64,000 nucleotides of DNA, taken from Thalassotalea marina. Its GTDB lineage: Bacteria; Pseudomonadota; Gammaproteobacteria; Enterobacterales; Alteromonadaceae. Shown piece by piece: positions 7,501-45,615 of the stretch. The position numbers were made by a program, and so were the translations under genes. Every line of letters begins with the position of its first letter. Within the stretch, counting starts at the first letter, position 1. The stretch spans positions 1 to 64,000 of the forward strand of contig NZ_BNCK01000006.1 in the NCBI RefSeq assembly GCF_014656435.1. The letters run 5' to 3'. Below the pieces are notes generated by a model. It saw only the letters and a list, made by a program, of their open reading frames with translations, was not told where the DNA came from and searched no databases.

Positions 7501-9579
7501 TTAAAATAGCTTAACTAGCTCTTTTCGAGCAGAAATTATTTGAGTTGTTAGTAAGTTATCGGCCTTTACGTCAGTAATAAAGGTGGTTTTATCTTTCAGT
7601 GTCATCAGTGTGTTAATGCTTGACTGGTTATACGATTTACTCATCAAGTGTCGGGTTTTATGGTTAGTCCAATAAACGCCATCAATCGCAAAAACTGCCA
7701 CATCCACTTGTTCAGCCAGAACTTCAGGGCTGGTTTGTTGCAGTTCAGCCATCGCTATTTGCATCAAGCGATCATCTCTATCAAGTACGTATAAGGTGTC
7801 ATCTCTAATCGCGGCACTTGCCACATTGTCGATGCCTAAAGAGGTTAGTTCACCATTTGTTAGATTCACCACATATAACTCTCTAACTTTATGATGGTTT
7901 GCGCTGATTAAAACTTCATTATCGCTATACCAATCTAGAACAAATCGAACAGGTACTGACACAGCATGTATTTGACTATTGCCCTGCAAGTCTACTTGCA
8001 CTAACTGGTCATTGGCAGAAAGTAAAAGATGTGTTCCATCAGGAGACCAATGAATGTCATTTAAATTGCTCCCTTGACGAAACCTTGTCAGAGGGTACGC
8101 ATGCTGTAGATCAGTTAACCACACCTGCTCTGAGCCATTTTTATCAGAAATATAAGCAATTAAATCACCATTAGGTTGAAACTTGGCTTTTCGTTCAACC
8201 GCAGTACTTCGGCTTAAACTTTTATAAGGCTGAAACTCTTGATTAAAACTACCTTGTACCGACTGCCAAGTTGCCTCATCAGCTAGGTTTATCAAGGCGA
8301 CATCAGTGTCTACATGTCCACGCACACCAACTAAACTTTGCATATCAGGTGCCGCAGTCACCATAATTATGCCCTTTTCAGCTATGGTTATCTCTTCTGT
8401 TTTACCCGATAAATAGAGATTAAAAGTGCCCGAATTATTGGCATAAATAAGGTATTCGCCATTGGCGGCAAAATTTGCTTCAACATAATCATATGCGCCA
8501 GATTGAACTGGACGTTCAATCAATACTTCAGATATTAACTGTCCCTGCTCATCCAGCAAGATAAGCCAATCATTATGATCGCTGTCTCTGGCGATAACAG
8601 CAAACGTGTTTGTCGCAGCATGGTGATCATAATAATAAATGCGCTTTTCACTATTTTGATAAATGGGTTGTTCAACTTGGGTTCTGTTGTCAACCTGCAT
8701 CAATTGATAACGATTTTGTATCATTTTTAAAAATGCGACTTTGTTATTGCCCAACCCATGGGCAAGTTCAATTAAGTGTTGATCACAACGATGTACAGTA
8801 TTTAATTTCGCAGGTGCAGTTAACGCTTGAGCAAAATCAACCGATTGAATAGACCAACAATTATTAGTGGAAGCTTGAGGAGTGCAGCTTTCTTGCACTG
8901 TGGTAAATATCTGACTGCCATCAGGTGAAAAGCTTGGCAAAGTGTAAACAGCGTCAACTTGTGTTAATTGGCTTTCTTTGCCTGACTCAAGGTGTTTTGC
9001 CCATATTTGGCTCTGGCAAGTGCCGATCATGCGGGTAAAAATTAAATATTGTCCGTCGGGTGAAAAAGTTGGAAATAAATCATTTTCTTCACTTTGGGTA
9101 AGTTCTTGTATGTAATTATATTTCACCATTGGCGACGATGACTGATGGTGCCAAAAAAAAACACTCGCGACTAATACCAGCAAAAATAAAATTAAGCCGC
9201 TTTTAAAACTAAAGCGCTGAGGTGATGTAGCAGTTTGCTCTAGCGTTTTGTTATTGGTTTCAATGATTTCAACACGGGCCGTTAATCGATAACCAATTTT
9301 TGGATGTGTAACAATAACCTCCTGGCGTTTTGCATCATCACCTAACACTTTCCTTAATTGTGCAATGCAGCGCTGCAAAGCATTAGGTACCACTTCAACA
9401 TTGGGCCAAATCGCATTTTTTATCACGTCATGCGTCACCACTTCATTTTGATGCTTGGCCAATAGCGCTAATACTTTTAGGATTTTAGGCTCTATCGATT
9501 GTGTATTATCGTCAATAGTCACGGTTGAATGTAAAAGGTCAACCAAAGTGTTATTAACATAAAAGCGAGTGGCAAACAT
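7501..9579 (-). CDS. ToxR/CadC-like membrane-bound one-component regulator: N-terminal OmpR/PhoB-type winged-helix DNA-binding domain, one TM helix, periplasmic TolB-like beta-propeller
   Basis: N-terminus resembles the trans_reg_C domain (LLAKHQNEVVTHDVIKNAIWPNVEV...IGYRL). TM segment LILFLLVLVASVFFW. The periplasmic part has repeated FSPDG, SFSPDGSQIF and WSPDGTHLLL blades. Confidence 0.7.
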   Translation of the reverse strand: MFATRFYVNNTLVDLLHSTVTIDDNTQSIEPKILKVLALLAKHQNEVVTHDVIKNAIWPNVEVVPNALQRCIAQLRKVLGDDAKRQEVIVTHPKIGYRLTARVEIIETNNKTLEQTATSPQRFSFKSGLILFLLVLVASVFFWHHQSSSPMVKYNYIQELTQSEENDLFPTFSPDGQYLIFTRMIGTCQSQIWAKHLESGKESQLTQVDAVYTLPSFSPDGSQIFTTVQESCTPQASTNNCWSIQSVDFAQALTAPAKLNTVHRCDQHLIELAHGLGNNKVAFLKMIQNRYQLMQVDNRTQVEQPIYQNSEKRIYYYDHHAATNTFAVIARDSDHNDWLILLDEQGQLISEVLIERPVQSGAYDYVEANFAANGEYLIYANNSGTFNLYLSGKTEEITIAEKGIIMVTAAPDMQSLVGVRGHVDTDVALINLADEATWQSVQGSFNQEFQPYKSLSRSTAVERKAKFQPNGDLIAYISDKNGSEQVWLTDLQHAYPLTRFRQGSNLNDIHWSPDGTHLLLSANDQLVQVDLQGNSQIHAVSVPVRFVLDWYSDNEVLISANHHKVRELYVVNLTNGELTSLGIDNVASAAIRDDTLYVLDRDDRLMQIAMAELQQTSPEVLAEQVDVAVFAIDGVYWTNHKTRHLMSKSYNQSSINTLMTLKDKTTFITDVKADNLLTTQIISARKELVKLF

Positions 9580-11149: not shown

Positions 11150-14100
11150 TTACTCAATGGAGTTAACTTCATCACTGCTATCTACTTTTGTCTGATTTTT
11201 ATTGTCAGTTGACAGTTCTCTGCTGATTTTTTGGATTGGCGTTTCTTTTGTTGTCGAAGCTTTCCCCGCCGGATGATTCAAATTCGACAACACATTTACC
11301 AGCTCGCCGTCTAATTGCTGCTTGTCAGCAAGTGTCTGTGCAAGAGGTGAAAATACGCTTTCAAGTTGCTGAGAGAACAAGCCAAGCACTTCACTTAAAT
11401 CATGACCTTGCTCAGATTTAGCTGATTTGTTTGGCTTTAAATCACGAACAGCGTCAGTTAGCTCAGATAAGTTAACACTATTGGGTTGTTGTAATATCTT
11501 CGCCAAATTTGTCAATTCCTTCTGCACCAATGAAACTTGCGAAGCAATATTGGCCACAGGGTTGTCACTACCACCCAGATTTTTATGGCGTACGTACTCT
11601 TCTTTGATTTGTAACCAACGATGCTGATCTTCTGGAGTTAAGGTGTTTCTTAACTCACCAAGCTTAAGTAAATTCTCTTCAGCACCAACCGTTAATGTTT
11701 GTGCTTCACCGCGATAGTGATCGGCTATCAGCTGCTCAATTTCTTGCTCTGTCATCACAGGCACAACTTTTTCTGCCATTTTATTCATGTTGCGATAACT
11801 TCCCTGCAACTTAAATGGCGGCTCTATCCGATATTTATCATCTTGAGCGGCAGAGGCAATATACTGCTCGTTGGTTTTTAACACCGTTTGTTGTATTTGC
11901 CTAATGCGCTTAATCACTGCGATGATTTCGTTAACTTCTGCTTGAGAGTATCCGTGTTTTAAATCACTGGCATTGACCGGTTCGCCATCAGCTTGTTTGA
12001 TCAGCTGATACAAGTCATCCATATCTCGTGTTGCCAATGGTGCTAAATAACGGTTACTGGTTAATGAGTTTTCGATAAAACTCAATGAAAATTCATATTC
12101 TCGGCCACTTAGCGTGTCACCTAGATTATAAATATCTGCTCGGTTCGCCAACATGTCTGGGATAGTGAACGCTTCGCCAGACTCTGTATAAGGGTTGCCC
12201 GCCATGATCACAGCAAACTTTTTACCGCGTAAGTCGTACGTTTTGCTTTGTCCTTGCCATACACCATCAACCTTTCGAGAGCCATCACACAGTGAAATAA
12301 ACTTTTGCAAAAACTCAGGGTGAGTGTGCTGAATATCATCGAGATACAACATCACGTTGTTACCCATTTCAAACGCTAGGTTAATTTTTTCTACTTCACT
12401 CCTAGCCGTTGAGTTATTTGCTTGCTCGGGATCGAGTGACACTTGGTCATGACCAATAGAAGGGCAATTAACCTTAACAAAAGTCATACCTAACTTACTG
12501 GCAACATATTCAATTAACGTAGTTTTACCGTAACCTGGTGGAGAAATAAGTAACAATAAGCCCATTAAATCGGAACGCTTTTGGTTGCCTGCTGCGCCAA
12601 TTTGTTTTGCTAAATTAGCCCCAATGATCGGAAAATAAACATCGTTAATTAACTTGTTTCGTACAAAAGAAGATAAAGCTTTAGGCTGAAATTCACGCAT
12701 ATTCAGCTGGGTTCGCTTGTGCTCTAATACTTGTTGTTTTTGCTGATGAAATTGCTTAAATGCTGGCACATGTACATCAACAAATTCTGTTAACCTTGAA
12801 ACAAACTCTTGATAATTAATAGTCAGCTGACGATCAACAATATTGCCGTGTTGCCCTAAGAGTTCCGAGACTGTTTTGTCCGTTTCAGCGGACGAGCTAT
12901 AAAACTGAGCAGCCTCGCCAAAGGTCATTAAACATGCAGCTTCCACTAAAGTATCTTCTGCTGCCTTGATCTGTTGATTCTCAGAAAAGGCACTTAGCCA
13001 AGCATAATAAAGTGCATATTGCTGCCCTGTGTGCTGGCAGGCACCAATTGCTTGTCCAATAGAATGTTCTAAGTTATTAGCTTTGAGTTGTAGTTTTAGG
13101 TCTTTAACGAGAGTTTGACTGGCTTCTTTGGTCACAAAGCTAGAATTACCCTGTGACAATTCTTCGAGTAAATAACGTGCCGCCAAAGCAGGTTGAGCGC
13201 TCAACCATACATGTTGCTGCTGAAAATCACTCAACAGTTCAGTAAATTCAGCTAATAAATCGTTGCGCAGTCCACTAGAGCCAAAGGTTTGCTCCATCAT
13301 ATTTAAATTTACGCAACGGTTTTGTATATCGATACGACTATTATCATTGAGCTGCATGCACCAAAAAGCAAGTACTAGGCGCTTTTCTTGGCAAGGATAA
13401 GCAAGTAAACCAATATCAGCTTTTAACGATAACAAAGCGTTTAAAATCGCCACTGCGTCTTGGTCATGTACCCCCTTGTCATAACCTTCTTGATACCGTT
13501 GTTCGACATAACGTTGAACAACTTTTATCAAGCTATTATCACTTGCGGCGGCGGTTAATTCGGCGATAGCTTGCAGCCCTTTCTTTTCAGCGTCAAATAA
13601 AATACTTGCCGCCAGATATTCACCGCGATACACCGTGCTATTTTCTGATATTAGGTCTTGTTGCCATAAATATTGAGTACCAGCAAACATCGAGCTGTCT
13701 ATGACTTCAAAATATTCACTGCCAGAAATATGCAACAGCATCTCGTTATCTCTTGGCAGTAACGTTAGCTCTGGCTGTTGCTTATTCACGGAAAATTGAT
13801 GATCGCCAATTTTAACTAAACTGCCGTCTGCCGAATAAATATCTGACTTATCACGTAATGCTCGAACCGCCTGCTCTTTAGCGTTTTTTAACTTAGCGTC
13901 TACATCGTCAGCTTTAACATGATCATCTAAGGCTCTAAGCTGCTCAACTAACTGTCTAAGCTTTGTCACCATAGGGTCTGCGGCAAAATAGCTATTGAGT
14001 TTATCTAGGCTGTCAAAACCACTGGTTCGACGGTCGATTCCAGACAAAATACGCTCTGCCGCTGTAAATAACGTCAAACAGCGCTTTTGCTGCGCATCCA

Positions 14101-16387
14101 TCAATTGCTGTTTATGCTGCTCGAAGTTGTCATATACTTCATCGCGTTTTGCCAAGATTTCGCCATGAAACTCATCATAGTCACTAAATTGGCTTTCTAA
14201 TTCTTCCAGCTGGATCAATAACTGCGATAGCTGCTGATCACACTCTTGAGGTGTGTTACTGGCGTTGAGCGCACTGGTTACGCTTTGGTTTAGTAATTTA
14301 AATCGTGCGCCAAATTCAGCACGAGCTTCATCAATACCAACATTTTTCACTGCTAGATCAGCGTTAGCATTAACTCGGTTAACTAAACTAAAAACCGCAG
14401 AGATATCTTCCAGAATACGTGTACGTTGTCTGCTGTCTTCAATATCTATCGACAACATAGTTTGATTAAGTAACTCAAGCCCTGCAATAAGCGTTTCAAT
14501 GCGCTCTTTAATCGGTTTTAGCGCAGAAATTGCATCACATTGAGCCACTGCCTGTTCAATCGATTCTATTTCTTGATAATAAGGTGTTAATGCATTTTCT
14601 TGCTGTAAAAAATCAGCCGTTTGTTGGCTTAATGATTTGCTTAATTGGTCAAGTTGTTGGTCTATTTGATCGATGGCCTCAACATCAATGTATTTAAGTT
14701 CTTTGTGAGAAATAAGCTCACCTTTAAAGCCAGATAATGCCACCAAACCTTCAACATATTGTGCCGCATTATCTGCCGACATATCGGCCAATTCACTTGA
14801 AAGTTGCGCAAACTTCTCTTTTGCGCCAATCAATGTTTCATCTGAGTTTTGCTTAATTGCGGTAACTTTTTCAAACTCATCTAATGCCAATTCTGCCGCT
14901 TCAACCACCTGTTGTAACAATGCATACAAAGAAGCTAGCTCTGAATCATTTAACCAGTGATAGTGGTCAAACAGTTGCTTCGCCTCTTTGACCAAATCGT
15001 TAAAGTGCACCATGCTAGGCGTTTTAACGCCAATTAATTTAACCACGCTGTAAAGTGCAGAAATACCTCTTACTAATTCTGCATTACCTATTTTTCCAAA
15101 GAAGCTGTTATCCGCTGGTTGGCTGCTCGCGTGCTCTTCACTGCAAAATGGTGTTGTCCATATTTGCATTGAGTGCAGTCTTGATGGCTCAGATTCGGCT
15201 GCAAAAATTACTGCTCGGCCATTTTCGTAAATACTTTGACCATGACCGTAAATCGGGTTTTGTAGCGTTCTCGTAATTAAGTTATAAGCAAACAACGCAT
15301 ATTGGCCTGCACTTGGCTCATAAAAGATGTAGAGAAAGTCTTCACCGTTAGGTGACTTGATAATGCGGTGAAGCTCTAAATTATCGGATTTGTCATCAAA
15401 ACTTTTATGGTCACCATTTTGTAAGTAATAGCCACCGGGGAAAATAATGCCATGATCTTCTGGTAATTGAATACAGGAATTTGCAATGGCATCTTGTCGC
15501 AAGACCTGCTGAGTTTTGGTATTAAAAATTAAATGGCGAGTGTGCTCTTCACGATAAGGCTTCACCTTTAACAGGATCAGTTCACCAACCATAGCATAAT
15601 CAATATCAGCATCATCAAGTGACTGGTGTGTATCTTCCACTGGTTCACTATAAATGCCTTCGCCTGCCTCAGTATTATTTTCCACTTTGAGTGTTAGATT
15701 GCCACCCGTGCATTCTACAAACAAAGTATCAAACAAGTTGTAATGGGCAAACTTGCCACTTACTTGCTGGTCACGAGTTACACTTTGCCATTCAAAATCA
15801 AAGTTTTCAGGCTGTTTTAGTGCACGTTCGCCTCGGTTATCGATGTAAGTCACTTGGTGGTTAGCATCGATTGCCCACTGAAATACCCGAATATCATCGA
15901 GACGTTCACCTATCTGAAATATGGCAAACACTTTGCTGCCTTGACGGTAAACATGTGCTAGGAATGTTTTTTTGTAATAGGTGTATAGCTCATCAAAATC
16001 ACGAACAAATTCTGGCTCTTCCAGAAAACTGCCTTCAATAGGTAAGTCGACAATATCGACACCTTCGTCGGTAACTTCCAACTTATGCAAACTGAAAACA
16101 TCCGCCACGGTGATGTTACGTTTTAGACCCAAAAATACGTTGTAGCCAAAAAGTAAGATATCACCAATGGCTGCGATATCACGAGCAACGCAGTTGTTTT
16201 CTGTTCTCACTCTAACACGAGACTCAACCGCCATATCGGTATCACCAAAGGTATTGATACGATCGGTGTTAAGTTGTTGAATTTGTGTATTTAGCTCTGT
16301 ACCTAGGTGGGTCAGTCTACGCTGAATTAGCTCGTAAGAACCGCCTTCTGCAACAGCCTGATTAGTGACATTGTCCTGAATTGCCAT
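11150..16387 (-). CDS. Giant (1745 aa) multidomain protein: N-terminal ~420-aa beta-rich region, ~800-aa alpha-helical/coiled-coil middle, and a single AAA+ ATPase module (AAA_5/MoxR-dynein-like) at residues ~1270-1450
   Basis: Walker A ISPPGYGKTTL (DNA ~12520-12545). Walker B VMLYLDDIQH (DD rather than DE). Sensor-1-like AVIMAGNPYT and RADIYNLGD. ATG with a GGAG RBS. It is the last gene of the patatin/NfeD/flotillin operon. No TM segments seen. Confidence 0.75.
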   Translation of the reverse strand: MAIQDNVTNQAVAEGGSYELIQRRLTHLGTELNTQIQQLNTDRINTFGDTDMAVESRVRVRTENNCVARDIAAIGDILLFGYNVFLGLKRNITVADVFSLHKLEVTDEGVDIVDLPIEGSFLEEPEFVRDFDELYTYYKKTFLAHVYRQGSKVFAIFQIGERLDDIRVFQWAIDANHQVTYIDNRGERALKQPENFDFEWQSVTRDQQVSGKFAHYNLFDTLFVECTGGNLTLKVENNTEAGEGIYSEPVEDTHQSLDDADIDYAMVGELILLKVKPYREEHTRHLIFNTKTQQVLRQDAIANSCIQLPEDHGIIFPGGYYLQNGDHKSFDDKSDNLELHRIIKSPNGEDFLYIFYEPSAGQYALFAYNLITRTLQNPIYGHGQSIYENGRAVIFAAESEPSRLHSMQIWTTPFCSEEHASSQPADNSFFGKIGNAELVRGISALYSVVKLIGVKTPSMVHFNDLVKEAKQLFDHYHWLNDSELASLYALLQQVVEAAELALDEFEKVTAIKQNSDETLIGAKEKFAQLSSELADMSADNAAQYVEGLVALSGFKGELISHKELKYIDVEAIDQIDQQLDQLSKSLSQQTADFLQQENALTPYYQEIESIEQAVAQCDAISALKPIKERIETLIAGLELLNQTMLSIDIEDSRQRTRILEDISAVFSLVNRVNANADLAVKNVGIDEARAEFGARFKLLNQSVTSALNASNTPQECDQQLSQLLIQLEELESQFSDYDEFHGEILAKRDEVYDNFEQHKQQLMDAQQKRCLTLFTAAERILSGIDRRTSGFDSLDKLNSYFAADPMVTKLRQLVEQLRALDDHVKADDVDAKLKNAKEQAVRALRDKSDIYSADGSLVKIGDHQFSVNKQQPELTLLPRDNEMLLHISGSEYFEVIDSSMFAGTQYLWQQDLISENSTVYRGEYLAASILFDAEKKGLQAIAELTAAASDNSLIKVVQRYVEQRYQEGYDKGVHDQDAVAILNALLSLKADIGLLAYPCQEKRLVLAFWCMQLNDNSRIDIQNRCVNLNMMEQTFGSSGLRNDLLAEFTELLSDFQQQHVWLSAQPALAARYLLEELSQGNSSFVTKEASQTLVKDLKLQLKANNLEHSIGQAIGACQHTGQQYALYYAWLSAFSENQQIKAAEDTLVEAACLMTFGEAAQFYSSSAETDKTVSELLGQHGNIVDRQLTINYQEFVSRLTEFVDVHVPAFKQFHQQKQQVLEHKRTQLNMREFQPKALSSFVRNKLINDVYFPIIGANLAKQIGAAGNQKRSDLMGLLLLISPPGYGKTTLIEYVASKLGMTFVKVNCPSIGHDQVSLDPEQANNSTARSEVEKINLAFEMGNNVMLYLDDIQHTHPEFLQKFISLCDGSRKVDGVWQGQSKTYDLRGKKFAVIMAGNPYTESGEAFTIPDMLANRADIYNLGDTLSGREYEFSLSFIENSLTSNRYLAPLATRDMDDLYQLIKQADGEPVNASDLKHGYSQAEVNEIIAVIKRIRQIQQTVLKTNEQYIASAAQDDKYRIEPPFKLQGSYRNMNKMAEKVVPVMTEQEIEQLIADHYRGEAQTLTVGAEENLLKLGELRNTLTPEDQHRWLQIKEEYVRHKNLGGSDNPVANIASQVSLVQKELTNLAKILQQPNSVNLSELTDAVRDLKPNKSAKSEQGHDLSEVLGLFSQQLESVFSPLAQTLADKQQLDGELVNVLSNLNHPAGKASTTKETPIQKISRELSTDNKNQTKVDSSDEVNSIE

Positions 16388-16450: not shown

Positions 16451-18433
16451 CTATTTAACGTCGGTTGTATTTTTGTCACCTAAATTTAATAAGTTTGCCA
16501 ACATACCTTTTTGGCTATCGTCTGCGTTGTTCAGTGTTGATAACAACTTAGCCATATTAACGTTTTTCAATGTTTCACTGGTTTGATTAACCCCTGAAAG
16601 CACCCCTCCTAAATCATCCATAATATTGCGATCACCGTTTAATTGATCTTTGAACAGGCTTTGAACCGTTTCACTCTCGTTAACTAAGCCATCAATTGAT
16701 TTACCAACGGTAATAGACTTCATGAACTGTCTTAAGAACTCTCCGTCACCGCCCATGATATTAATATTGGCTTCTGCAAGTGCAGTTGCTAGAACTTGGG
16801 CTTGTTTTTCAGCTAAATCAACGCTGTTATCTAGTTTTGCAAGCGTCAACTCACGTTCTTGATTTAAGCGTAAGCCAAAGGTTTCAAATTCACGCGCTTG
16901 CTCTGACATGGCGTTTAATACTTCTTGTTTCTCTCTTAAACCTGTTGCCTCTGCTAGGGCTTTTTCTTCGATACCTTTTGCTTCGGCAGTCAATTTAAGT
17001 TCAAGCGACTTAGCAATCGCCTCACCTTCTTTCTCTTTAGCCTCAGCTTGCGCCAATGTTACTTGTGCATCAGCTAAACCAGCTGACGCGGCTTCTGCTT
17101 GGTTACCTTCAGCAAGGATCTTCTTAGCTTCCGACTGTTTAGACGCGGCTTTTAACTCTGCATCAGCAATAACTTGTAGCTCTTTCGCTTTAAATTCTGC
17201 AGCCTGCTCTTTAGCCTTAGCTGCTTCAATATCTTTAACTAACGCTTCTTCTGCTTCAGCCTGTGCTTTTATTACTTGTTCGTCTTTTAGGCGCGTTGCT
17301 TGTGATACCACGCGAAGATCTTTAATTCGCTCTTCTTCTTCCGCAACACTTTTTTCAACCGCTATACGCTCTTTTTGCACCTGAGCAATATTTTTACGTT
17401 CAACTTCTAGCGCTTTTTCTTTATCTATACGTAAAGTTTCTACTTCTTTTTCACGGTCAATAGATTCAATTTGACGAGCGCGAGTTACTTTTTCTTGTTC
17501 AATTGCCACAGCTCTTAAGCGGTTCTGTTCAGCAACTTCAGCTTCACGCATTTTGTTTTCTTCAGCAATAGCAACAGCTTGCTCTGTTTGAATGCGTGCT
17601 TGCTCAGACTTAGCTCGCTCTTCTTCAACAATTTTAGCTGTTTCTGCTTCTTCTCTTGCTTTAACAGTAGCAATCTCACGTGCTTGTTTAGCGGATGCAT
17701 CAGCCAACTGGCGGTCCAGCTCTAATCGTTTTTCTTCTGCTTCAATGTCTTGACGTTTAATTCGTATTTCTTCTTGGCGTTTTAAATCGTTAGTTTGAAC
17801 ACTTTGTTGCGCCGTTAATTCAGTGATTCTGCGAATACCTTCTGAATCCATAATGTTGTTTGGATCAAGATCGTTAATTGACGTTTGCTCTAAAAAGTCG
17901 ATGGCAACATCTTCTAAAACAAAACCAGATAAATCTTGCCCAATCACTTCTTTAATTTTGTCTCTAAAAATATCACGCTGAGTAAATAATTCAGTAAAGT
18001 TAAGCTGTTTACCTACCGTTTTAAGGGCTTCTGAAAATTTCGCTTCGAATAATTCTTGTAATGTTTCAGGGTACGCAGAACGTTCACAACCTACCTGCTT
18101 AGCAACACGTAAAATGTCTTCTTTAGTTTCATTTACACGGATATAAAAGGTGATGATGATGTCAGCACGAATATTATCTTGGCATATCAAACCAGAGCGA
18201 CCTTTACGCTCCAGTACCATACGCTTTGTTGAAATATCCATAACTTCTTTTTTATGGATAATTGGAATGACCATGCCACCAGTTGTACTAATGGTAGGCT
18301 CAGCTCTGAGCTTATTGATAATGAGGGCTTTGCCTTGTTCTACTTTGTTATAAAACTTCGCCACCATGATTAATAAAGAAAAGACGACTAATACGCCAAT
18401 GCCAATAGCTAGGTAAAGTGGTTCCATTACCAT
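16451..18433 (-). CDS. Flotillin-like SPFH/band-7 protein (YqiK-like) with a long E/A/K-rich coiled coil
   Basis: N-terminal TM (LAIGIGVLVVFSLLIMVA) followed by an SPFH core (…MVIPIIHKKEVMDISTKRMVLERKGRSGLICQDNIRADIIITFYIRV…). Then ~300 aa of EA-rich heptad repeats. 660 aa. Confidence 0.8.
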   Translation of the reverse strand: MVMEPLYLAIGIGVLVVFSLLIMVAKFYNKVEQGKALIINKLRAEPTISTTGGMVIPIIHKKEVMDISTKRMVLERKGRSGLICQDNIRADIIITFYIRVNETKEDILRVAKQVGCERSAYPETLQELFEAKFSEALKTVGKQLNFTELFTQRDIFRDKIKEVIGQDLSGFVLEDVAIDFLEQTSINDLDPNNIMDSEGIRRITELTAQQSVQTNDLKRQEEIRIKRQDIEAEEKRLELDRQLADASAKQAREIATVKAREEAETAKIVEEERAKSEQARIQTEQAVAIAEENKMREAEVAEQNRLRAVAIEQEKVTRARQIESIDREKEVETLRIDKEKALEVERKNIAQVQKERIAVEKSVAEEEERIKDLRVVSQATRLKDEQVIKAQAEAEEALVKDIEAAKAKEQAAEFKAKELQVIADAELKAASKQSEAKKILAEGNQAEAASAGLADAQVTLAQAEAKEKEGEAIAKSLELKLTAEAKGIEEKALAEATGLREKQEVLNAMSEQAREFETFGLRLNQERELTLAKLDNSVDLAEKQAQVLATALAEANINIMGGDGEFLRQFMKSITVGKSIDGLVNESETVQSLFKDQLNGDRNIMDDLGGVLSGVNQTSETLKNVNMAKLLSTLNNADDSQKGMLANLLNLGDKNTTDVK

Positions 18434-18500: not shown

Positions 18501-19127
18501 TTAGATTGCATAACGTGCAACGATATAGACGTGCGAATCAGCGTTATATTCGATGAGTAACACTTTGTCGCCACGATTAAAAAGCTGATCTTCGGCGCAA
18601 CGAACATCAAGTAAGATTTCTGCACCGTCGTTAAAAATTTTTGCTTGACCAAATGTTGGCGTCACGCTGCTTGTTGAAATGGTTGCTTCTAAACCAACAA
18701 ACTTAGCACTGCTTGCCGTTTCAGCAGTGGCAAACATAGACTTAAATGGTCTTAACATGATTGCCGCTATTGGCAGTGAGATAAAAAAGATAACGACATT
18801 TGCAATCGCCCCAGCGCCAAAATACAGCCAACCACTGGGTAACAAATCAAGCACATAATACTGTGTGTAAACGCTGATTAGCCAACACACGAGAGCAACA
18901 ATGCTAATGACCAGTGTGAAAGGAATACCAGATAAGCCAAACGTTAACATAAAGCCAGATAGACCACCTATTGAACCATCGGCGTCAATATCCGCGTCAA
19001 CATCACCAGAGAAGTCTAAGTCGACCAGCCCTAAAAGACCAACAATCCAATAAACAACGACAACTCCCAATACCACAGAAAATATGACAGTTGGGAAGTT
19101 AGTAGAGACTTGAAATAGCTCTTCCAT
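18501..19127 (-). CDS. NfeD-like (YqiJ/YuaF-like) membrane protein with a C-terminal OB-fold
   Basis: Four hydrophobic segments, then a C-terminal beta-rich tail (KFVGLEATISTSSVTPTFGQAKIFNDGAEILLDVRCAEDQLFNRGDKVLLIEYN). It has the canonical position upstream of the flotillin gene. Confidence 0.7.
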   Translation of the reverse strand: MEELFQVSTNFPTVIFSVVLGVVVVYWIVGLLGLVDLDFSGDVDADIDADGSIGGLSGFMLTFGLSGIPFTLVISIVALVCWLISVYTQYYVLDLLPSGWLYFGAGAIANVVIFFISLPIAAIMLRPFKSMFATAETASSAKFVGLEATISTSSVTPTFGQAKIFNDGAEILLDVRCAEDQLFNRGDKVLLIEYNADSHVYIVARYAI

Positions 19128-19325: not shown

Positions 19326-21788
19326 TTAAATAAACTCAGTAAAAGGAACCAATTCATTCTTTAATAGCCAATATTGTGTAATAGGGTTATGAATTGGCGA
19401 GTCGCTAGGCACCAATTCGGTTTTACCCCAAAAAACGGGATACCCCATCAACTTTGATTCGGCTAGCAGGTTTTGCTCAGGTAAAACAATGCGATAATAA
19501 CCGTGTTTGTCTTTAAAAAAGCCATCGCGGTCTATGATCAATTCACCATTTTTAACATTGTAGCCAGTCCACACTTTTTGTTTGCTGTGCCAAGTTGCAA
19601 AACAAATCAGGTACAGTTGATTGTTTTGTTTGCTAAGCCTTATTGGGTGGCGATCATCATCAAAGGTATTTTTGCCATCAAGTTCAAAATCACCATCAGA
19701 AACTGGCACTCTAAGCTCTACCACCACCTCTTCTATCTGCTGATATTCAATGGCATTTATTTTGTCTTTAATAAAACTGGCCAACATGCTCAGTAATGGC
19801 CCATTAATTAAACCTAAATTTAACAAATTTGACGATGTGACCATTTGCTCAACGCGGTTTGAAAGTGCCATCAACCCCATTTTAAAATGGGCCATATAGG
19901 TGTCGTATTCAGGGTAGTTTTTATCAAATGGCGCTGGCAATGTTGTTGGAACTTTACCATGTGGGATCGCAGAGGCTTGCTGCATAAATTCCATTGCACA
20001 ATACCTGGCAACGTCTACCTCATAACGGCTTGGTATCGGCGACATAAAACCCGCAAATGCAGCTATAGGACTTCCCGGTAAAAATATTTTTTCGAAATTT
20101 TCATCAGACTTTTTATAAAATGGACCAATCGCAATGAGTTGGCTATTGCGACTTTTTGCCGCTAACCCACTAATAATATCAACAAAACTAAACACCAATG
20201 CCGTCATGATTTTCTTTTGTTCGTCTGCAGAAAACTCAGTGATGTCATTACTGACGTCAATTTGCTCTGCTAATGGCGATAAATCTGCGACAACGGAGTC
20301 TTTTTCATTAGCTAAGCGCCAGATTTCACCGGCAATAGTGGTTGGCAATGTAGGAATGGGATCTTTGTCAGATAATTCAGTTAAAAAATTAGCGATTTGA
20401 GCTTTTAAATTTAAAAAATTATCGTTATTTGGCGCAATAGCATTGGTAATACATGCTCTGAGCTCATTTCGCATTAATAACTTGTTTGCGATTTGAAAAG
20501 TGCGATGTTCCTCTTTTGCTTCGGCTTGTGCACTAGAAACGGTTGCCTGAGTCACTACTTGCCCAATAAGCTTATCCAGCGACGTTTTTTGATATAAATC
20601 GTTACCGTCAAATGCTCTAAAAACTTTTAGCGGCCCTGCTAACGCTTGTTGCGTCTGCCAATCGGTCAACCCAGGTAAATAATAATTAGGCTCAGCACCT
20701 ACGTTAGGGTCAACAAAAATTATCCTTCGTTCATAATTGGTATTTTTATCTAAGCCATCAATATGAGAAGCAAGTTTAAACGCTTCAGCAACAGGCTCGT
20801 TATTAAATGCTCCACCATCTATGTAGCTAAACCGCCCAGAGCTTTCTCCTTTATATGGCCATAAAGTCGACGGATATTCCCAGTTGTATCGCTTTAAGGT
20901 CACTGGCTCAAATGCCACCGGAAAACTGCCACTGGCGACAGCCGTTGCAACGATATGCTTCCAGTCGTCACCAGAGCGTAGGTCAAAGGTTTCATCAGGT
21001 ATTTGATCGCCCCAATGCAAACGGACCCAACGTTTAGGGTGCTGGTCTTGTTGGGATAGTTTTTCACTTGGCACCGCAGCAAAGTTAATATCAAATATTC
21101 GCATTTCTTTGTGCTGAAACGATGTAAGTGCATCATTGGTTGCAATATTGCTATCTTTGGCAACGGGATATAATTGGTAAGCTTTAGCATGAATTGGGTT
21201 TAAGTTGGCAATGCTGCAGCCATAAAGTACTCGATTAGCCAGCAACATGTGTTTTGCTTTATCACTGTTTTTATATTGCCCACTTGAAGGCATTAAATTT
21301 GCGCGAGCAATATCCACCACTGTTTTTTTATTGACCACACCACATTGAAATTTAAGCGGTGGAATATTGGCATCGCCATCTGGTTCTAACAATCGCTCTA
21401 AAGTAATTTGGTTAACCCAAATATCATTCATCACCTCTTGTGCCAGTTGAGCATCAACTAATTGCTGTTGCTTTTTATCACTAAACCCTTGCCACTTTTT
21501 GTCACTAATATCGTAAAGCGTTTTTAATGATTGTATTGCATTGTTTCTTTTTTCTGCGCCTTTATTGGGAAAAGCTAAACATTTGAGCATGATCCCTAAG
21601 CTCATTGCCCCAGCACTGGCACCAGCAAACACATCAATTTCAACACTATCATAGGGTTGATTTTGCCCATCGACACCATAAAGCAAGGCGAGTTTTATTG
21701 ATTCAGTCAGTGCAGCGCCACTAAATGATCCCAGTGAAACACCGCCGCCCATTGCAAATCCTAGTTTTAATTTAGTTGCCATATCCAT
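19326..21788 (-). CDS. Patatin-like phospholipase (820 aa) with a ~420-aa C-terminal extension of unknown function. It is the first gene of the operon
   Basis: Oxyanion-hole Gly-rich motif FAMGGGVSLGSFSG, nucleophile elbow GASAG (GxSxG), and catalytic Asp in YIDGGAFNNEP (DGG). ATG start. 350 bp of AT-rich promoter region upstream. Confidence 0.8.
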   Translation of the reverse strand: MDMATKLKLGFAMGGGVSLGSFSGAALTESIKLALLYGVDGQNQPYDSVEIDVFAGASAGAMSLGIMLKCLAFPNKGAEKRNNAIQSLKTLYDISDKKWQGFSDKKQQQLVDAQLAQEVMNDIWVNQITLERLLEPDGDANIPPLKFQCGVVNKKTVVDIARANLMPSSGQYKNSDKAKHMLLANRVLYGCSIANLNPIHAKAYQLYPVAKDSNIATNDALTSFQHKEMRIFDINFAAVPSEKLSQQDQHPKRWVRLHWGDQIPDETFDLRSGDDWKHIVATAVASGSFPVAFEPVTLKRYNWEYPSTLWPYKGESSGRFSYIDGGAFNNEPVAEAFKLASHIDGLDKNTNYERRIIFVDPNVGAEPNYYLPGLTDWQTQQALAGPLKVFRAFDGNDLYQKTSLDKLIGQVVTQATVSSAQAEAKEEHRTFQIANKLLMRNELRACITNAIAPNNDNFLNLKAQIANFLTELSDKDPIPTLPTTIAGEIWRLANEKDSVVADLSPLAEQIDVSNDITEFSADEQKKIMTALVFSFVDIISGLAAKSRNSQLIAIGPFYKKSDENFEKIFLPGSPIAAFAGFMSPIPSRYEVDVARYCAMEFMQQASAIPHGKVPTTLPAPFDKNYPEYDTYMAHFKMGLMALSNRVEQMVTSSNLLNLGLINGPLLSMLASFIKDKINAIEYQQIEEVVVELRVPVSDGDFELDGKNTFDDDRHPIRLSKQNNQLYLICFATWHSKQKVWTGYNVKNGELIIDRDGFFKDKHGYYRIVLPEQNLLAESKLMGYPVFWGKTELVPSDSPIHNPITQYWLLKNELVPFTEFI

Positions 21789-23922: not shown

Positions 23923-26190
<2,268 letters not shown>

Positions 26191-31288: not shown

Positions 31289-32098
31289 TTAATTAAACAC
31301 CCAGGCAAGTCCTAACCCAACTGAAACATTTTCTTTTTGTTGCACGAGAGGGCTGTTTTCATTTTTACTACCACCGATATGGCGATAAAGCACAAAGCCA
31401 GCAAGCCACCATTGCTGTTTGCGATAAACAAGCCCAGAAGATAAGCTGGTGCCTAGGTATCCTGATTTAGCATCAAACGCTGGGCGATGAGCAAGTTGAT
31501 ACTGTTTGTCTACCTGATAATAAACATCTTGATATGTTTCAGAGGCAAAGTTTACCGTTAAACGATTTTGCCAAGTTAACTGCCCCTGATTAACTGCAGC
31601 TAATGTATGTTGTGCATGTAACGCAGTGCCATATTGCCACCCAGCATCAGACAATGTAGAAAAATCTGTCATGATTGCTTTGCGCGTGAACAATTCAGTA
31701 AAGAGCTTGTTATCTGCTGACGGCGTACCTGACAAATAATATTTGATGGCGCCGCCAAGCTGGAAAGTCCAATCAATGTCAGGCATACCAGAGCGAATAG
31801 CCACATCATCACTGTTTACGGGCAACTGCGCTGACACCGAAAAATCAACATATAAACGTTGTGTTTGCCACAAGCTGCTGAGCAGACCATCGCGATCAAC
31901 TTTGATGTGTTTGTCTTGATAATACACATAAGGCAGTGGAACTATATGTTGGCGATAATCCTTTGCCCCAGCATATTCTGGAACATGAAGCGCAAAGGCA
32001 CCAACACCAATTTCAAAAATTCGTTCAGGCTGCTCGCCAGCCTCTGTTAACGTAGCGCACAAAAGTAATAGTGCACAAAACAATCCTTGTCGTTTCAA
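31289..32098 (-). CDS. MipA/OmpV-family outer-membrane beta-barrel protein (last gene of the aryl-polyene operon)
   Basis: Signal peptide. Alternating amphipathic beta-strands. C-terminal aromatic residue (...GLGLAWVFN). 3-bp gap to the upstream KS gene. Confidence 0.55.
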   Translation of the reverse strand: MKRQGLFCALLLLCATLTEAGEQPERIFEIGVGAFALHVPEYAGAKDYRQHIVPLPYVYYQDKHIKVDRDGLLSSLWQTQRLYVDFSVSAQLPVNSDDVAIRSGMPDIDWTFQLGGAIKYYLSGTPSADNKLFTELFTRKAIMTDFSTLSDAGWQYGTALHAQHTLAAVNQGQLTWQNRLTVNFASETYQDVYYQVDKQYQLAHRPAFDAKSGYLGTSLSSGLVYRKQQWWLAGFVLYRHIGGSKNENSPLVQQKENVSVGLGLAWVFN

Positions 32099-32101
32099 TG
32101 A

Positions 32102-33325
32102 TTAGTTCCAGCGTTTAAAAATAAGAGAGGTGTTGATACCACCAAAGGCAAAGTTATTACTCATTACATGATTGGTAACAATTTCTCTGCCAGCGCCTCG
32201 AACATAGTCAAGTTCAGCACACTCTGGATCAATAGTGTCTAAATTGATGGTTGGAGCAAACCAGTTGTCATTCATCATATTGATACAAGCCCATGCTTCA
32301 ATTGCCCCACAGGCACCTAGCGTATGGCCTAAGTAACTTTTAAGTGAGCTTATTGGCACTTGCCCCAACATTTGGTGTGTTGCATGTGTTTCTGCAATAT
32401 CACCGCGTTCCGTTGCTGTACCATGTGCATTGACATAACCAATTTGTGTAGCATCCAAGTTAGCATCTTCAAGTGCTAATTTAATCGCGCCAGCCATGGT
32501 TGCTTGTGTCGGTTGAGTTACATGCACACCATCGGCATTGGTGCCAAAGCCAACAAGCTCAGCCAAAATTGTTGCGCCACGAGCTTGGGCATGTTCTAAC
32601 TCTTCTAACACCAAAGTACAGGCGCCTTCGCCAATAACTAAGCCATCTCTTGAGGCTTCAAAAGGACGAGGGGATGATTTAGGGGCATCATTTTTAATAC
32701 TTGTCGCAAAAAGTGTATCAAAAACTGCAGCTTCTGTGACACAAAGCTCCTCTGCACCGCCTGCAACCATCACTTTTTGCTTGCCATATTTAATGGCTTC
32801 ATAAGCATAACCTATGCCCTGGGAGCCAGAAGTACACGCAGAGCTAGTAGTAATAGTGCGCCCTTTTAACTCAAAAAACACACCAACATTTACTGCCGTA
32901 GTATGAGCCATCATTTGAATGTAACTTGTTGCTGTTACGCCGGACATTTCACCATTTTTCATCAAGTTACCAAAAGGCACAATAGGATTGGTTGAACCAG
33001 TAGATGAACCATACGCAATACCCGTTGAACCATCAGTTAAACAGTCTTTATCAATTAAATCTGCTTGAGTAAGTGCTCTTTCTGTCGCCAGCGTTGCCAT
33101 TAATGAAACGCGCCCCATCGAGCGAACTTTCTGTCGTTTATAGTGTTTTGGCTTTTCAAAGTCTGTTACTGGCGCCGCTAAACGGGTGTTTAATCCGTCA
33201 ACATAATCCCATTCAGACATGTTGACGACTGCATTTTCGCCTTTAACTAACGCGCCTTTAAATGTTTGCCAATCTTGCCCTAAAGACGTGATGGCAGACA
33301 TTCCAGTCACAACTACACGTTTCAT
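32102..33325 (-). CDS. Beta-ketoacyl-ACP synthase (KAS I/II-like, elongating KS)
   Basis: Active-site Cys in TSSACTSGSQGIGY. His residues in NAHGTATERGD and GHTLGACGAIEA. TAATG overlap with the upstream gene. Confidence 0.85.
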   Translation of the reverse strand: MKRVVVTGMSAITSLGQDWQTFKGALVKGENAVVNMSEWDYVDGLNTRLAAPVTDFEKPKHYKRQKVRSMGRVSLMATLATERALTQADLIDKDCLTDGSTGIAYGSSTGSTNPIVPFGNLMKNGEMSGVTATSYIQMMAHTTAVNVGVFFELKGRTITTSSACTSGSQGIGYAYEAIKYGKQKVMVAGGAEELCVTEAAVFDTLFATSIKNDAPKSSPRPFEASRDGLVIGEGACTLVLEELEHAQARGATILAELVGFGTNADGVHVTQPTQATMAGAIKLALEDANLDATQIGYVNAHGTATERGDIAETHATHQMLGQVPISSLKSYLGHTLGACGAIEAWACINMMNDNWFAPTINLDTIDPECAELDYVRGAGREIVTNHVMSNNFAFGGINTSLIFKRWN

Positions 33326-34050
33326 TATACTAACCCACCATTTACTGATAACACTTGGCGTGTCATGTAAGCAGAGTCGTCAGACATTAAAAATGCCACG
33401 GTTCCTGCAACTTCTTCAACCTTGCCCATGCGTTTAATCGGCACTAATTTTAAGATTTCATCAACAGGCAAATCGTCGGTCATTTCAGTTTCTATCAACC
33501 CAGGCGCTACACAGTTTACGGTAATTTTTCTTTTGGCTAGCTCTAACGCCAAAGCTTTAGTTGCACCAATAATACCTGCCTTGGCGGCACTGTAATTAAC
33601 TTGGCCTCGATTACCAGCAATACCAGATACTGACGCCATGGTGACAATACGACCACCCTTTCGAGCTTGAACCATAGGCATTACCGTTGGATGTACAACA
33701 TTGTAGAAACCTTCCAATCCTGTTTTTATAACGGCATCCCAATCATCACCTGACATGGCAGGAAACGCCATATCTCGTGTAATACCTGCATTGCAGACTA
33801 CGCCGTAATATGCACCATATTGTTCAATATCTTGCTCAATGGCTTGTTGCGCTAATTGGCGATCACAAACATCAAATTGCAACACAGATGCATCTTGCCC
33901 CATGTCTTTTATTTCTTGAGCAACCGCTTGCGCTTGTTCTATTTGGCTGCGGCAATGTACAGTAATGTCAAATCCTTGCTTTGCTAACCTTAATGCAATG
34001 GCTCGCCCAATACCGCGACTTGAACCCGTTACTAATACACGTTTATTCAT
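33325..34050 (-). CDS. 3-oxoacyl-ACP reductase (FabG-like SDR)
   Basis: VLVTGSSRGIGRAIA Rossmann motif. YSAAK catalytic YxxxK. Confidence 0.85.
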   Translation of the reverse strand: MNKRVLVTGSSRGIGRAIALRLAKQGFDITVHCRSQIEQAQAVAQEIKDMGQDASVLQFDVCDRQLAQQAIEQDIEQYGAYYGVVCNAGITRDMAFPAMSGDDWDAVIKTGLEGFYNVVHPTVMPMVQARKGGRIVTMASVSGIAGNRGQVNYSAAKAGIIGATKALALELAKRKITVNCVAPGLIETEMTDDLPVDEILKLVPIKRMGKVEEVAGTVAFLMSDDSAYMTRQVLSVNGGLV

Positions 34051-34502
34051 TATTGTTCCTTTAAAAATGCTATTGGGTTTTCAGGTTGAAAGGCATTCAC
34101 TTTCGCCTGTGCAATCACTTGGTTTTCACGTTCTATTTTACATTCAAAAACCGTTAAACCTGAGTCGTCTCGATAGAGCTCTTCAACATGAACTTGATAA
34201 CTTTCACCCAATTCAAATGCAGGTTGAAACGTTTGATATTTGCGACTACCCAGTAAAAAACCTATATCAATTTTTTTATCTTTATCTAATGCATTAGCAC
34301 CAGCAAAAGCGGCGATAGTTTGAGCCATATATTCAATGCCGATATAGCTTGGGACCCCTTGAAGCTGTTCTTGATAAAAGGGAGAAGTTGGCAAAATATC
34401 TACCTCACAGGTCGCCGAGTCAGCCGTATAGTGAGTTAATCGAGACAACAAAATCATTGGTTCGCGATGAGCAATCACCTCTTCAATCGCGTAGTTTTTC
34501 AT
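34050..34502 (-). CDS. Hotdog-fold 3-hydroxyacyl-ACP dehydratase (aryl-polyene type)
   Basis: 150-aa hotdog fold. Translationally coupled between the KS and FabG genes. Confidence 0.6.
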   Translation of the reverse strand: MKNYAIEEVIAHREPMILLSRLTHYTADSATCEVDILPTSPFYQEQLQGVPSYIGIEYMAQTIAAFAGANALDKDKKIDIGFLLGSRKYQTFQPAFELGESYQVHVEELYRDDSGLTVFECKIERENQVIAQAKVNAFQPENPIAFLKEQ

Positions 34503-35689
34503 GCGGTTTTACCCAAAATAACACTGATATTATTGCCACCAAAAGCAAAAGAATTAGACAAAGCATTGTCTAATCGCTGTACTGAGTGGCCTTGAGAAAC
34601 GGCAATTCTAGCAAGATCAGGCGCAATTCCAAAGTCACTTTTATTTTTTGGTAAAGCACCGTGTGTATTGCGTGGTGAAAGTAACAGCCACAGTAGTGCA
34701 GCTTCAATTGCGCCAGCAGCCCCTAAGGTATGGCCAGTAAATCGTTTGGTTGAGCTGCAAGGTACTTGCTCGCCAAACACCTGTGAAACTGCAAGTGTTT
34801 CCATGGCATCATTTTTGGGCGTCGCCGTCCCATGTAGGTTGATATAATCAATGTCTTGCCCTGATAAACCTGCATCGTTTAACGCTTGCTGCATCGCTGA
34901 TTGAGCACCAATCCCTTCTGGGTGTGGCGCAGAAATATGATGAGCATCAGAGGTTTCACCTACACCACGCAACATGATAGGGCTAGTTTGACGAGACATA
35001 ACAAATAAAGCCGCCCCTTCACCAATGTTAATGCCGTCTCGTTCAGCTGATAATGGGTTACATAAAGTCGCTGCAATTGACTCTAATGCATTAAAACCGT
35101 TATTGGGTAAATGGCTTAGCGTATCTACACCACCACAAATAACAAGGTCAGCTAAATCACTTTGCAATAACGCTCTGGCGCTGGCCAAGGCTTTTGCACT
35201 AGAGCTACAAGCGGTAGAAATACTGTAAACAGGGCCTTTGGCACCACTTACCGTCGCAATAAAGTCAGCGGGTGACACCATTTCTTGTAGTGCGTAATCA
35301 AAATCACTTGGCCATTGCTGATGGTCACAAAATACTTGTCGCGCCACTTCCCCTTCTTTAATGCCCGAGGTACTTGTGCCAACAACGACTGCTATGCGTG
35401 TTGCTGGCATATCTTGCGTTAACATATCAATAGCGGGCTTAATTTGCTGATAGGCCAACATCGCTAATTGATTGTTTCGAGTTTGCATCGCTGGCTCATA
35501 ACCGTCCAACAGGCTTTGCATATTGCTGGTTTCAGCAACTTGACCACACCAAAATACTTTGTCGCTATCTAACGCTTTTGACCAAGGTTTTAAGTATTCT
35601 TCATCGGCCTTGTTGATCAGCGAATCAAAAACGCTATCTTTATCATGACCAAGGGAACAAACAATACCAACATCGTTTAAGAAACTCAT
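34499..35689 (-). CDS. Beta-ketoacyl-ACP synthase (second KS)
   Basis: STACSSSAKAL (Cys), NLHGTATPKND and GHTLGAAGAIEA. Confidence 0.85.
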   Translation of the reverse strand: MSFLNDVGIVCSLGHDKDSVFDSLINKADEEYLKPWSKALDSDKVFWCGQVAETSNMQSLLDGYEPAMQTRNNQLAMLAYQQIKPAIDMLTQDMPATRIAVVVGTSTSGIKEGEVARQVFCDHQQWPSDFDYALQEMVSPADFIATVSGAKGPVYSISTACSSSAKALASARALLQSDLADLVICGGVDTLSHLPNNGFNALESIAATLCNPLSAERDGINIGEGAALFVMSRQTSPIMLRGVGETSDAHHISAPHPEGIGAQSAMQQALNDAGLSGQDIDYINLHGTATPKNDAMETLAVSQVFGEQVPCSSTKRFTGHTLGAAGAIEAALLWLLLSPRNTHGALPKNKSDFGIAPDLARIAVSQGHSVQRLDNALSNSFAFGGNNISVILGKTA

Positions 35690-39684: not shown

Positions 39685-39689
39685 CTGCC

Positions 39690-42212: not shown

Positions 42213-42219
42213 TTTTACC

Positions 42220-45611: not shown

Positions 45612-45615
45612 GGAT

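Follow-up and report, generated by a model that had tools for sequence, protein, structure and literature searches.

A giant DUF3686 AAA+ ATPase encoded in a cassette with a YqiK-type flotillin and a YqiJ/NfeD-like membrane protein in Thalassotalea marina

We analysed a 64,000-nucleotide stretch of Thalassotalea marina DNA (contig NZ_BNCK01000006.1, positions 1 to 64,000; hereafter the window), in which an open reading frame (ORF) on the minus strand (11150..16387, ATG to stop) encodes a giant protein of 1745 amino acids with DUF3686, DUF7902 and AAA+ regions. The gene for a 660-aa YqiK-type flotillin (16451..18433, minus) ends 63 nt upstream of it, and is itself preceded, across a gap of 67 nt, by the gene for a 208-aa YqiJ/NfeD-like protein with three transmembrane (TM) segments and a C-terminal OB-like part (18501..19127, minus). 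The best explanation of the giant ORF is that it encodes the ATPase subunit of a self-contained cassette made up of these three proteins. The corresponding T. marina database entry, P0001, is 100% identical to the window protein and carries the product name "DNA repair ATPase", whereas its closest relative, P0002 (74% identity), is named "biotin-(acetyl-CoA carboxylase) ligase" by JGI, and other relatives appear as "MoxR-like ATPase" or "DNA repair ATPase". The source annotations for this family are thus inconsistent and unreliable.

The neighbourhood of the ATPase gene was compared across 85 sources by iterated hidden Markov model (HMM) searches over all ORFs. Besides the window, the sources were 80 loci from genomes and four from annotated plasmids, and they represent Gamma-, Beta- and Zetaproteobacteria, Myxococcota, Actinomycetota, Deinococcota, Bacteroidota and a "Clostridia" metagenome-assembled genome. 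Wherever the upstream DNA exceeded 1.8 kb (82 of 82 loci), a flotillin gene was found upstream on the same strand, while the three sources lacking it have at most 357 nt of upstream sequence. In 79 cases the flotillin gene is directly adjacent, ending no more than 700 nt from the ATPase start, and 78 of the 85 sources have the YqiJ-like gene ahead of the flotillin gene. A CesT/Tir-like gene paired with pspA lies immediately upstream of the cassette in 31 of the 85 sources, and the pair is also present on pQBR103 and on the Hymenobacter plasmids; the 64-kb T. marina window gave no PspA or CesT HMM match anywhere. Clustering of all flanking ORFs revealed no widely conserved family other than the ATPase, the flotillin, the YqiJ-like protein, CesT and PspA. 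The three-gene core occurs in annotated records of Pseudomonadota, Deinococcota, Actinomycetota and Bacteroidota, and the cassette is carried by large plasmids (L001-L004) of Pseudomonas (pQBR103), Deinococcus, Streptomyces and Hymenobacter.

Five Colwelliaceae relatives contain the cassette as its three genes alone, each in a different genomic context, and IS110 or IS4 transposases adjoin it in two Colwelliaceae-like contigs (L090 13454-16234; L085 15489-16820). Since the flanks differ even among close relatives, the sequences suggest that the three genes move as a unit. Furthermore, the pairwise-identity matrices of the three proteins correlate with each other (r = 0.89, 0.83 and 0.80), which would fit co-inheritance, although shared phylogeny alone would yield the same correlation. 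At two loci, foreign genes sit between the flotillin and ATPase genes (L036 8012-9912; L047 6570-9962), one insertion consisting of two tandem paralogues of ~310 aa and the other of a ~3.4-kb block with a 512-aa ORF and ORFs of 131 and 160 aa. The adjacency of the flotillin and ATPase genes is therefore breakable without the loss of either gene.

The ATPase itself belongs to a large and widespread family. Pfam DUF3686 (PF12458) matched aa 31-477 over its full length (E=2.1e-186, profile positions 1-448 of 448), and DUF7902 (PF25472) matched aa 598-677 (E=5.6e-21). The combination of DUF3686, DUF7902 and AAA is common to more than 4,800 clusters at 90% identity, and a pattern scan with one genome per species confirmed relatives in at least 586 species from about seven phyla. 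Family proteins span 1,600-2,100 residues, and the T. marina ATPase is 40-45% identical over ~1,600 aa to homologues from the Pseudomonas plasmid, Deinococcus, Streptomyces and Hymenobacter; judged by such sequence comparison, its features lie far beyond chance. When the AAA+ and C-terminal module was used as a phmmer query against 1.84 billion representative sequences, 362 matches were obtained at E<=1e-30 and 887 at E<=1e-3, and the best 150 were all proteins of ~1,600-1,900 aa with the same architecture, or fragments thereof. From these few matches and the single architecture among the best of them, the AAA+ module is a tight, sequence-isolated family confined to one architecture. Only members of the same family were returned, and the search thus supplied no outgroup for the module.

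The catalytic motifs were located by a regular-expression scan, which gave a single GK[ST] and a single hhhhD[DE] motif in the entire ATPase. The Walker A sequence I-SPPGYGKT-TL occupies aa 1281-1291 (DNA 12515-12547), with its core SPPGYGKT at aa 1282-1289 (12521-12544, minus), in agreement with the lone P-loop that a first-pass annotation, made from the sequence alone, had placed at ~12520-12545. The Walker B segment VMLYLDDIQH and the sensor segment AVIMAGNPYT quoted in that annotation are likewise present, at aa 1345-1354 (core aa 1345-1351, DNA 12335-12355, minus) and aa 1392-1401, respectively, the latter containing the sensor-1 residue N1398, and R1416 is the candidate arginine finger. 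Motif counts over 323 full-length members gave the Walker A PPGYGKTT in 321, the sensor-1 M[AS]GNPYT in all 323 and PDMLANRAD in 318, while the Walker B DD is found in 322, as DDIQH in 320 and as DDVQH in 2; the window ATPase carries all four family motifs (PPGYGKT, DDIQH, MAGNPYT and PDMLANRAD). The DD pair had been described in the first-pass annotation as non-canonical, but it is the family norm, and the same hhhhDD-IQ Walker B is read in E. coli DnaA (ALLIDDIQFF), although overall similarity between DnaA and the AAA+ module is not detectable beyond this motif. DnaA hydrolyses ATP. Because DD is near-universal in the family and has this precedent, it appears to be a fixed family trait rather than a sign of decay or inactivity, and the ATPase, with its catalytic motifs intact and invariant, looks active. 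Indeed, when regional conservation was calculated as the mean major-residue frequency across 78 loci, the AAA core was the most conserved region (0.85), and the β domain ranked second (0.68), followed by the lid and C-terminal helices (0.66), the helical rods (0.58), the helical globular domain (0.49) and the C-terminal tail (0.23).

The assignment to a single AAA_5/MoxR-type module near the C-terminus, already proposed from the bare sequence, was borne out by the Pfam scores, with AAA_5 (PF07728) at 31.7 bits against a cut-off of 22 and AAA (PF00004) at 35.7 bits against a gathering score of 21.2, both over aa 1278-1401. The best structural matches of the module are the MoxR proteins CbbQ and NorQ. 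No convincing TM segment was detected in the ATPase, as the first-pass annotation had also stated, since the top 19-aa hydropathy window scores just 1.73 and lies inside a K/D-containing charged helix of a globular domain. Its further expectation that any membrane link would come only through flotillin and NfeD-like partners likewise agrees with a soluble ATPase and with the same-strand upstream flotillin gene at every assessable locus.

Both partners required sensitive comparisons. In the flotillin, hydropathy shows a single TM segment at the N-terminus, and the SPFH domain is accompanied by a helical region rich in E, A and K and by a C-terminal cap. Neither the full-length flotillin nor the full-length NfeD-like protein matched any Pfam family even at E<=10, and the precomputed Pfam column is also empty for this flotillin family in public contigs. 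For the flotillin, the miss apparently arises because the long E/A/K-rich stretch trips the HMMER bias filter; when aa 1-230 were scanned alone, Band_7 was matched with E=1.8e-8. Furthermore, a profile of seven sequences of the flotillin family aligned with E. coli YqiK (hhalign probability 99.9, E=2.9e-33, 402 columns), and a profile of the 208-aa family aligned with E. coli YqiJ across the TM region and the C-terminal OB-like part (hhalign probability 83, E=8.5e-6, 130 columns), with individual members of the latter family giving weak Pfam NfeD and YqiJ_N matches. These matches, together with the three TM segments of the 208-aa protein, substantiated the flotillin and NfeD partners named in the first-pass annotation. 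Searches of both partner profiles against PDB sequences returned nothing useful for either protein. The flotillin is predicted to face the cytoplasm, a topology taken from its homology with YqiK. In E. coli, yqiJ-yqiK is present without the ATPase, which thus supplements only some of the YqiJK-type pairs.

The domain anatomy was deduced from AlphaFold 2 (AF2) models built on 67-sequence multi-phylum alignments, in which aa 1-1200 reached a mean predicted local distance difference test score (pLDDT) of 83.9 with a predicted TM-score of 0.48, and aa 1150-1745 a mean pLDDT of 81.3; all DNA coordinates given for these domains refer to the minus strand. In the predicted models, an N-terminal amphipathic helix with a heptad-like pattern (aa 17-47, 16247..16339) precedes an all-β domain (aa 53-411, 15155..16231) that forms the core of DUF3686, consists of ~30 strands and is weakly propeller-like. 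The strands over aa 53-411 are in accord with the β-rich N-terminal portion of ~410 aa noted previously. The following helical rod region (aa 417-850, 13838..15139) contains ~14 amphipathic helices of 10-53 aa, arranged in a bundle or spectrin-like manner; its amphipathic pattern is heptad-like and short loops separate the helices, three consecutive ones of which correspond to DUF7902 (aa 598-677, 14357-14596). Next come a five-strand β unit with a GxHxFxVNxQ...LT motif (aa 857-895, 13703..13819), in which G861, F865, V867, N868 and T875 are invariant among the 67 sequences and H863, Q870 and L874 are less strict, and a globular all-helical domain (aa 921-1156, 12920..13627) with an RYxEGYxKGxHDxDA motif (Y965...H974, D975, D977). 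The motifs of the globular domain are invariant and non-heptad, and it has no Pfam family or PDB sequence match. Thus, the ~800 aa of coiled coil predicted in the first-pass annotation were not recovered; although this part is mostly helical, the model instead places there bundle-type rods, the β unit and the globular domain.

Three further strands (aa 1161-1191) lead to the MoxR/AAA_5-like AAA+ α/β core (aa 1236-1425, 12113..12682), which is followed by a lid and a conserved C-terminal helical extension (aa 1426-1640, 11468..12112) with an invariant EPxFxLQGSYRNM at aa 1522-1534. The protein ends in a low-confidence, variable tail (aa 1641-1745, 11153..11467), which is missing from the Streptomyces and Hymenobacter homologues. 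A search for a second or degenerate AAA, dynamin or SMC module by Pfam, NCBIfam, a 67-sequence profile against the PDB, regular expressions and AF2 gave none. No dynamin-family match was obtained in Pfam or NCBIfam, and no second nucleoside triphosphatase fold was seen in the AF2 secondary structure; nor is there a split ABC-type head, since the sole P-loop lies in the AAA+ fold and SMC_N, AAA_23 and Rad50 remained unmatched. The first-pass annotation had asked whether additional degenerate AAA modules or a known domain could account for the N-terminal and middle regions: DUF3686 and DUF7902 do cover them, while no extra AAA, dynamin or SMC module does. Both are domains of unknown function, and these regions are therefore classified rather than explained.

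Structural comparison of the first ~400 aa by Foldseek against the PDB returned β-propellers, including 2w38 and 3h6j (sialidase-type), WDR91, DDB1, CyRPA, the propeller of the trilobed protease and the clathrin terminal domain. These matches are weak, since probabilities reach 1.0 but E-values are no better than 9.5e-5 and target TM-scores (TMt) do not exceed 0.31. The longer alignments hit IFT-A, a nuclear pore complex scaffold nucleoporin and clathrin heavy chain, all of the propeller-plus-solenoid type, as well as dynein heavy chains, at TM-scores of ~0.1. Self-comparison of the β domain by hhalign detected no internal repeat (off-diagonal probability at most 1.5%), and no Pfam repeat family, including WD40, Kelch, NHL and PD40, was matched. 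Given the weak Foldseek matches and the absence of an internal repeat, we describe the β domain, tentatively and from the model, as propeller-like without a close solved relative. As for the whole protein, neither the single ATPase sequence nor the whole-family profile matched any PDB sequence beyond the P-loop region, to which similarity with solved AAA+ proteins is thus limited.

The likeness of the AAA+ module to the MoxR proteins CbbQ, NorQ and RavA rests on the AAA_5 match above the gathering score, a β-hairpin before sensor 1 and the xPDxLxxR context of the arginine finger. The pre-sensor-1 hairpin (aa 1372-1385, DNA 12233-12274, minus) is seen in the predicted model only, as strands at aa 1372-1377 and 1380-1385 with pLDDT ~77-90, between the Walker B strand (1345-1350), which is followed by a helix, and the sensor-1 strand (1391-1397). 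In the model, strand 2 and helix 2 are joined by a conserved irregular segment of 18 residues (aa 1308-1325) that shows no hairpin, and N1307, P1309, G1312, H1313, D1319 and P1320 are invariant. This insert and the GVW...TYD hairpin are the elements predicted to face the pore, and both are near-invariant. MoxR proteins differ, however, in their length of ~250-500 aa, whereas the T. marina module is preceded by ~1,235 aa of other domains, in their DE Walker B, where the T. marina ATPase has DD, and in their pairing with the VWA/MIDAS partners CbbO, NorD and ViaA.

Several lineages carry additional genes at the cassette. A TerB-like ORF of ~80 aa, with a borderline Pfam score (23.8 against 24.4), is inserted between the flotillin and ATPase genes in Pseudomonas and Lysobacter (L012 9610-9849, L014, L018 and L024). 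The same position is taken in Burkholderiales by the gene for a Zn_ribbon_TFIIB protein of ~180 aa (L057 8448-9014, L075 9388-9936 and L081 9351-9884), which in Colwelliaceae lies divergently upstream (L086 4269-4820, L087 4223-4771 and L091 4405-4953); it is absent from the T. marina window and may be an accessory or regulatory component. Downstream, telA directly follows the cassette in ten Xanthomonadales loci (L062 16041-17186 and nine others), and a rhomboid protease gene follows immediately in seven loci and lies elsewhere in the flank in two (L023 15222-15788 and eight others). These lineage-specific add-ons, TelA, rhomboid and the TerB-like protein, share the theme of membrane and envelope stress.

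An operon of this type has been described from genomics by Ravi et al. 2024 (mSystems, PMC11237479), who reported operons joining CesT/Tir-PspA with three further components, and wide distribution of abbreviated operons lacking PspA. With the same three components in the same order, the optional CesT-PspA pair and the same description of the ATPase domains, the T. marina locus is one of these abbreviated operons. The first-pass annotation was largely correct in what it observed, and sensible but incomplete in its interpretation: it overestimated the coiled coil, and it missed the catalogued Pfam families of the N-terminal and middle regions, the family-wide occurrence of DD with its DnaA precedent, and the earlier computational description of the operon type. 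The published account is a single paragraph without a family name, structure or experiment, in which a chaperone-like or membrane-dynamics role is suggested (PMC11237479). It differs from our models in that the "coiled coil" is here resolved into bundles of short helices and two further domains, and the propeller assignment appears weak. No experimental work, solved structure or paper using the Pfam name DUF3686 was found in the literature, and neither Hinderhofer 2009 nor a 2026 paper on Pseudomonas aeruginosa SPFH proteins mentions the ATPase.

The gene 198 nt upstream of the T. marina cassette (19326..21788, minus) encodes an 820-aa patatin-like phospholipase. Its motifs, GGG (14-16), GASAG (56-60) and DGG (324-326), and its catalytic dyad are intact, and its C-terminal part of ~450 aa has no Pfam match. 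We considered the patatin as a component of the cassette, but it was absent at the 84 other loci and from the five Colwelliaceae relatives. As it neighbours the cassette only in T. marina within our sample, it is probably a species-specific local neighbour rather than a core part. According to Ravi et al. (PMC11237479), operons of this kind in some Proteobacteria come with a gene for phospholipase D (HKD), where T. marina has this patatin that is not kept in relatives, and a lipase neighbour may therefore have arisen more than once. Elsewhere in the window, a long co-directional gene array on the minus strand (31289-48164) is probably a secondary-metabolite or pigment biosynthetic cluster; it contains an aromatic amino-acid ammonia-lyase (40677-42326), an AMP-dependent ligase (44268-45611) and a 745-aa ORF (37447-39684) with no Pfam match. 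A 692-aa protein with a CadC/OmpR-type DNA-binding domain (Trans_reg_C) and TolB/WD40-type propeller repeats (7501-9579, minus) and a KatG-type catalase-peroxidase (23923-26190, minus) are ordinary neighbours unrelated to the cassette.

The linkage of the three genes, the domain anatomy of the ATPase, its AAA+ clade and its intact, invariant catalytic motifs were thus established. As to function, an oligomeric mechanochemical role is a reasonable inference, and we propose that, when the membrane is under stress, a ring-forming cytosolic ATPase acts on the flotillin/YqiJ assembly or on its clients to remodel them, a reading to which we give an even chance of being correct. In this scheme, the flotillin and YqiJ-like proteins would form an SPFH-type oligomeric scaffold on the cytoplasmic face of the inner membrane, and the soluble giant protein would oligomerise through its lone MoxR-type AAA+ module, most likely into a hexameric ring. 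The propeller-like N-terminal domain, carried on the ~430-aa helical rod, would dock onto the flotillin/YqiJ assembly or onto clients held there. Under stress to the membrane or envelope, ATP binding and hydrolysis by the ring would then open, unload, take apart or otherwise remodel the scaffold. The physical binding, the ring formation, the substrate and the physiological trigger in this proposal are what we infer; the recurrence of the membrane-stress neighbours PspA, TelA, TerB-like protein and rhomboid speaks for it. A more specific version, which we regard as possible but doubtful, is a megadalton hexamer in which six propeller-tipped helical arms grip the flotillin/YqiJ cage while the MoxR-type ring pulls, the β domain being an as yet unsolved propeller-like fold.

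Related systems offer partial parallels for such a machine. HflK/C with FtsH represents an SPFH cage partnering an AAA+ machine (as cited in PMC13220708), and in both HflK/C-FtsH and the prohibitin-m-AAA protease pair an SPFH scaffold is coupled genetically and functionally to an AAA+ ATPase at a membrane, the analogy being one of working principle. FtsH is a membrane-anchored protease of the classic AAA+ clade, whereas the T. marina ATPase is soluble, MoxR-like and without a protease domain, and its SPFH partner is a flotillin of the YqiK type. In Staphylococcus aureus, FloA-NfeD acts on unfolded proteins as a holdase that is independent of ATP (PMC11222466), and an attached AAA+ machine could supply an energy-dependent release or refolding step to a holdase of this kind. 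Midasin/Rea1 and dynein heavy chains contain six concatenated AAA modules, whereas the T. marina ATPase has one and would need to oligomerise; at Foldseek TM-scores of ~0.1, the likeness of the helical part to midasin and dynein is generic.

Several points weigh against the proposal of a flotillin-remodelling ring. A VWA/MIDAS partner usually accompanies MoxR-type ATPases. The conserved neighbours in the 85 sources, in which no VWA-specific search was run, include no VWA gene, and Pfam gave no VWA match in the giant protein. Moreover, the helix-2 β-hairpin insert typical of the clade is not clear in the model, and synteny proves co-inheritance, and probably co-expression, but not which component is the substrate. 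Apart from the one genomics paragraph, literature searches turned up no report of partner binding, oligomerisation, ATP hydrolysis or a phenotype in this family.

The partner may instead be PspA. The giant protein would then be a Vps4-like disassembly or remodelling ATPase for PspA/IM30 polymers of the ESCRT-III superfamily, with the flotillin and YqiJ as a mere membrane platform, an idea favoured by the same-strand CesT-PspA pair immediately upstream in over a third of the sources and on the plasmids, and by the placement of the operon among PspA partners by Ravi et al., who drew the ESCRT-III/Vps4 analogy for other PspA-AAA+ pairs (PMC11237479). However, PspA is missing from the fetched flank in 54 of the 85 sources, including the T. 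marina window and the five Colwelliaceae relatives, and the flotillin linkage, unlike that to PspA, is universal; we therefore consider this unlikely. The Walker B without its canonical glutamate would also allow a nucleotide-binding scaffold that is catalytically dead or slow, in which DD prevents hydrolysis and the giant protein statically tethers flotillin assemblies to other structures, and the ~70% of the protein that is not ATPase, with long helical rods and a predicted propeller-like protein-binding module, would suit such a role. This is decidedly unlikely, given that the 323 members hardly vary at the Walker A lysine, the asparagine of sensor 1 or the candidate arginine finger, that the AAA core shows the highest conservation, the pattern expected of a working active site, and that the DD-IQ motif is shared with DnaA, an ATP-hydrolysing protein.

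Patchy distribution, carriage on large plasmids in four phyla, variable flanks among close relatives, nearby insertion sequence elements and the upstream patatin-type lipase, a common defence effector, would be compatible with a membrane-acting anti-phage or abortive-infection system. PADLOC-DB v2, however, gave no significant match: the ATPase matched at the P-loop level only, with E no better than 6e-4 (IetA, E=6e-4; mad8; BrxF), and the other three proteins matched nothing. No homologue was present in 50,697 phage records, and matches in PHROGs were to generic ATPases. The genes around the cassette in the window serve ordinary housekeeping and metabolism, conservation of the cassette does not extend to the patatin, and 40-50% identity across phyla is unusually high for a defence gene, which makes this explanation very improbable. 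The database view that the protein is a DNA repair ATPase is hardly credible: it is backed by inherited names only (the Pfam title of DUF3686, "ATPase involved in DNA repair", and the NCBI name "DNA repair ATPase"), while Pfam, NCBIfam and profile searches against PDB sequences revealed no DNA-binding, nuclease or SMC/Rad50-type ABC domain, NCBIfam RuvB matched the P-loop only (21.9 bits against a cut-off of 282), the two invariant partners are membrane proteins and the literature found lends the name no support.

The family is catalogued in Pfam and the operon is in print, and the T. marina protein is one further member; the "DNA repair ATPase" label on thousands of entries should be treated as unsupported. 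The cassette couples one very large and strongly conserved AAA+ ATPase to a YqiK-type flotillin and its NfeD-like partner, across at least seven phyla and hundreds of species, and thereby bears on the open questions of how SPFH cages open, load and recycle and of what bacterial flotillins do. Its hosts include tractable Pseudomonas, Stenotrophomonas, Myxococcus, Proteus and Streptomyces, where clean genetics could give access to an energy-dependent step of flotillin biology. If the hexamer does grip the flotillin/YqiJ cage, the ATPase would be the first dedicated ATP-driven assembly or disassembly machine for an SPFH scaffold, comparable in function to Vps4 acting on ESCRT-III or NSF on SNAREs.

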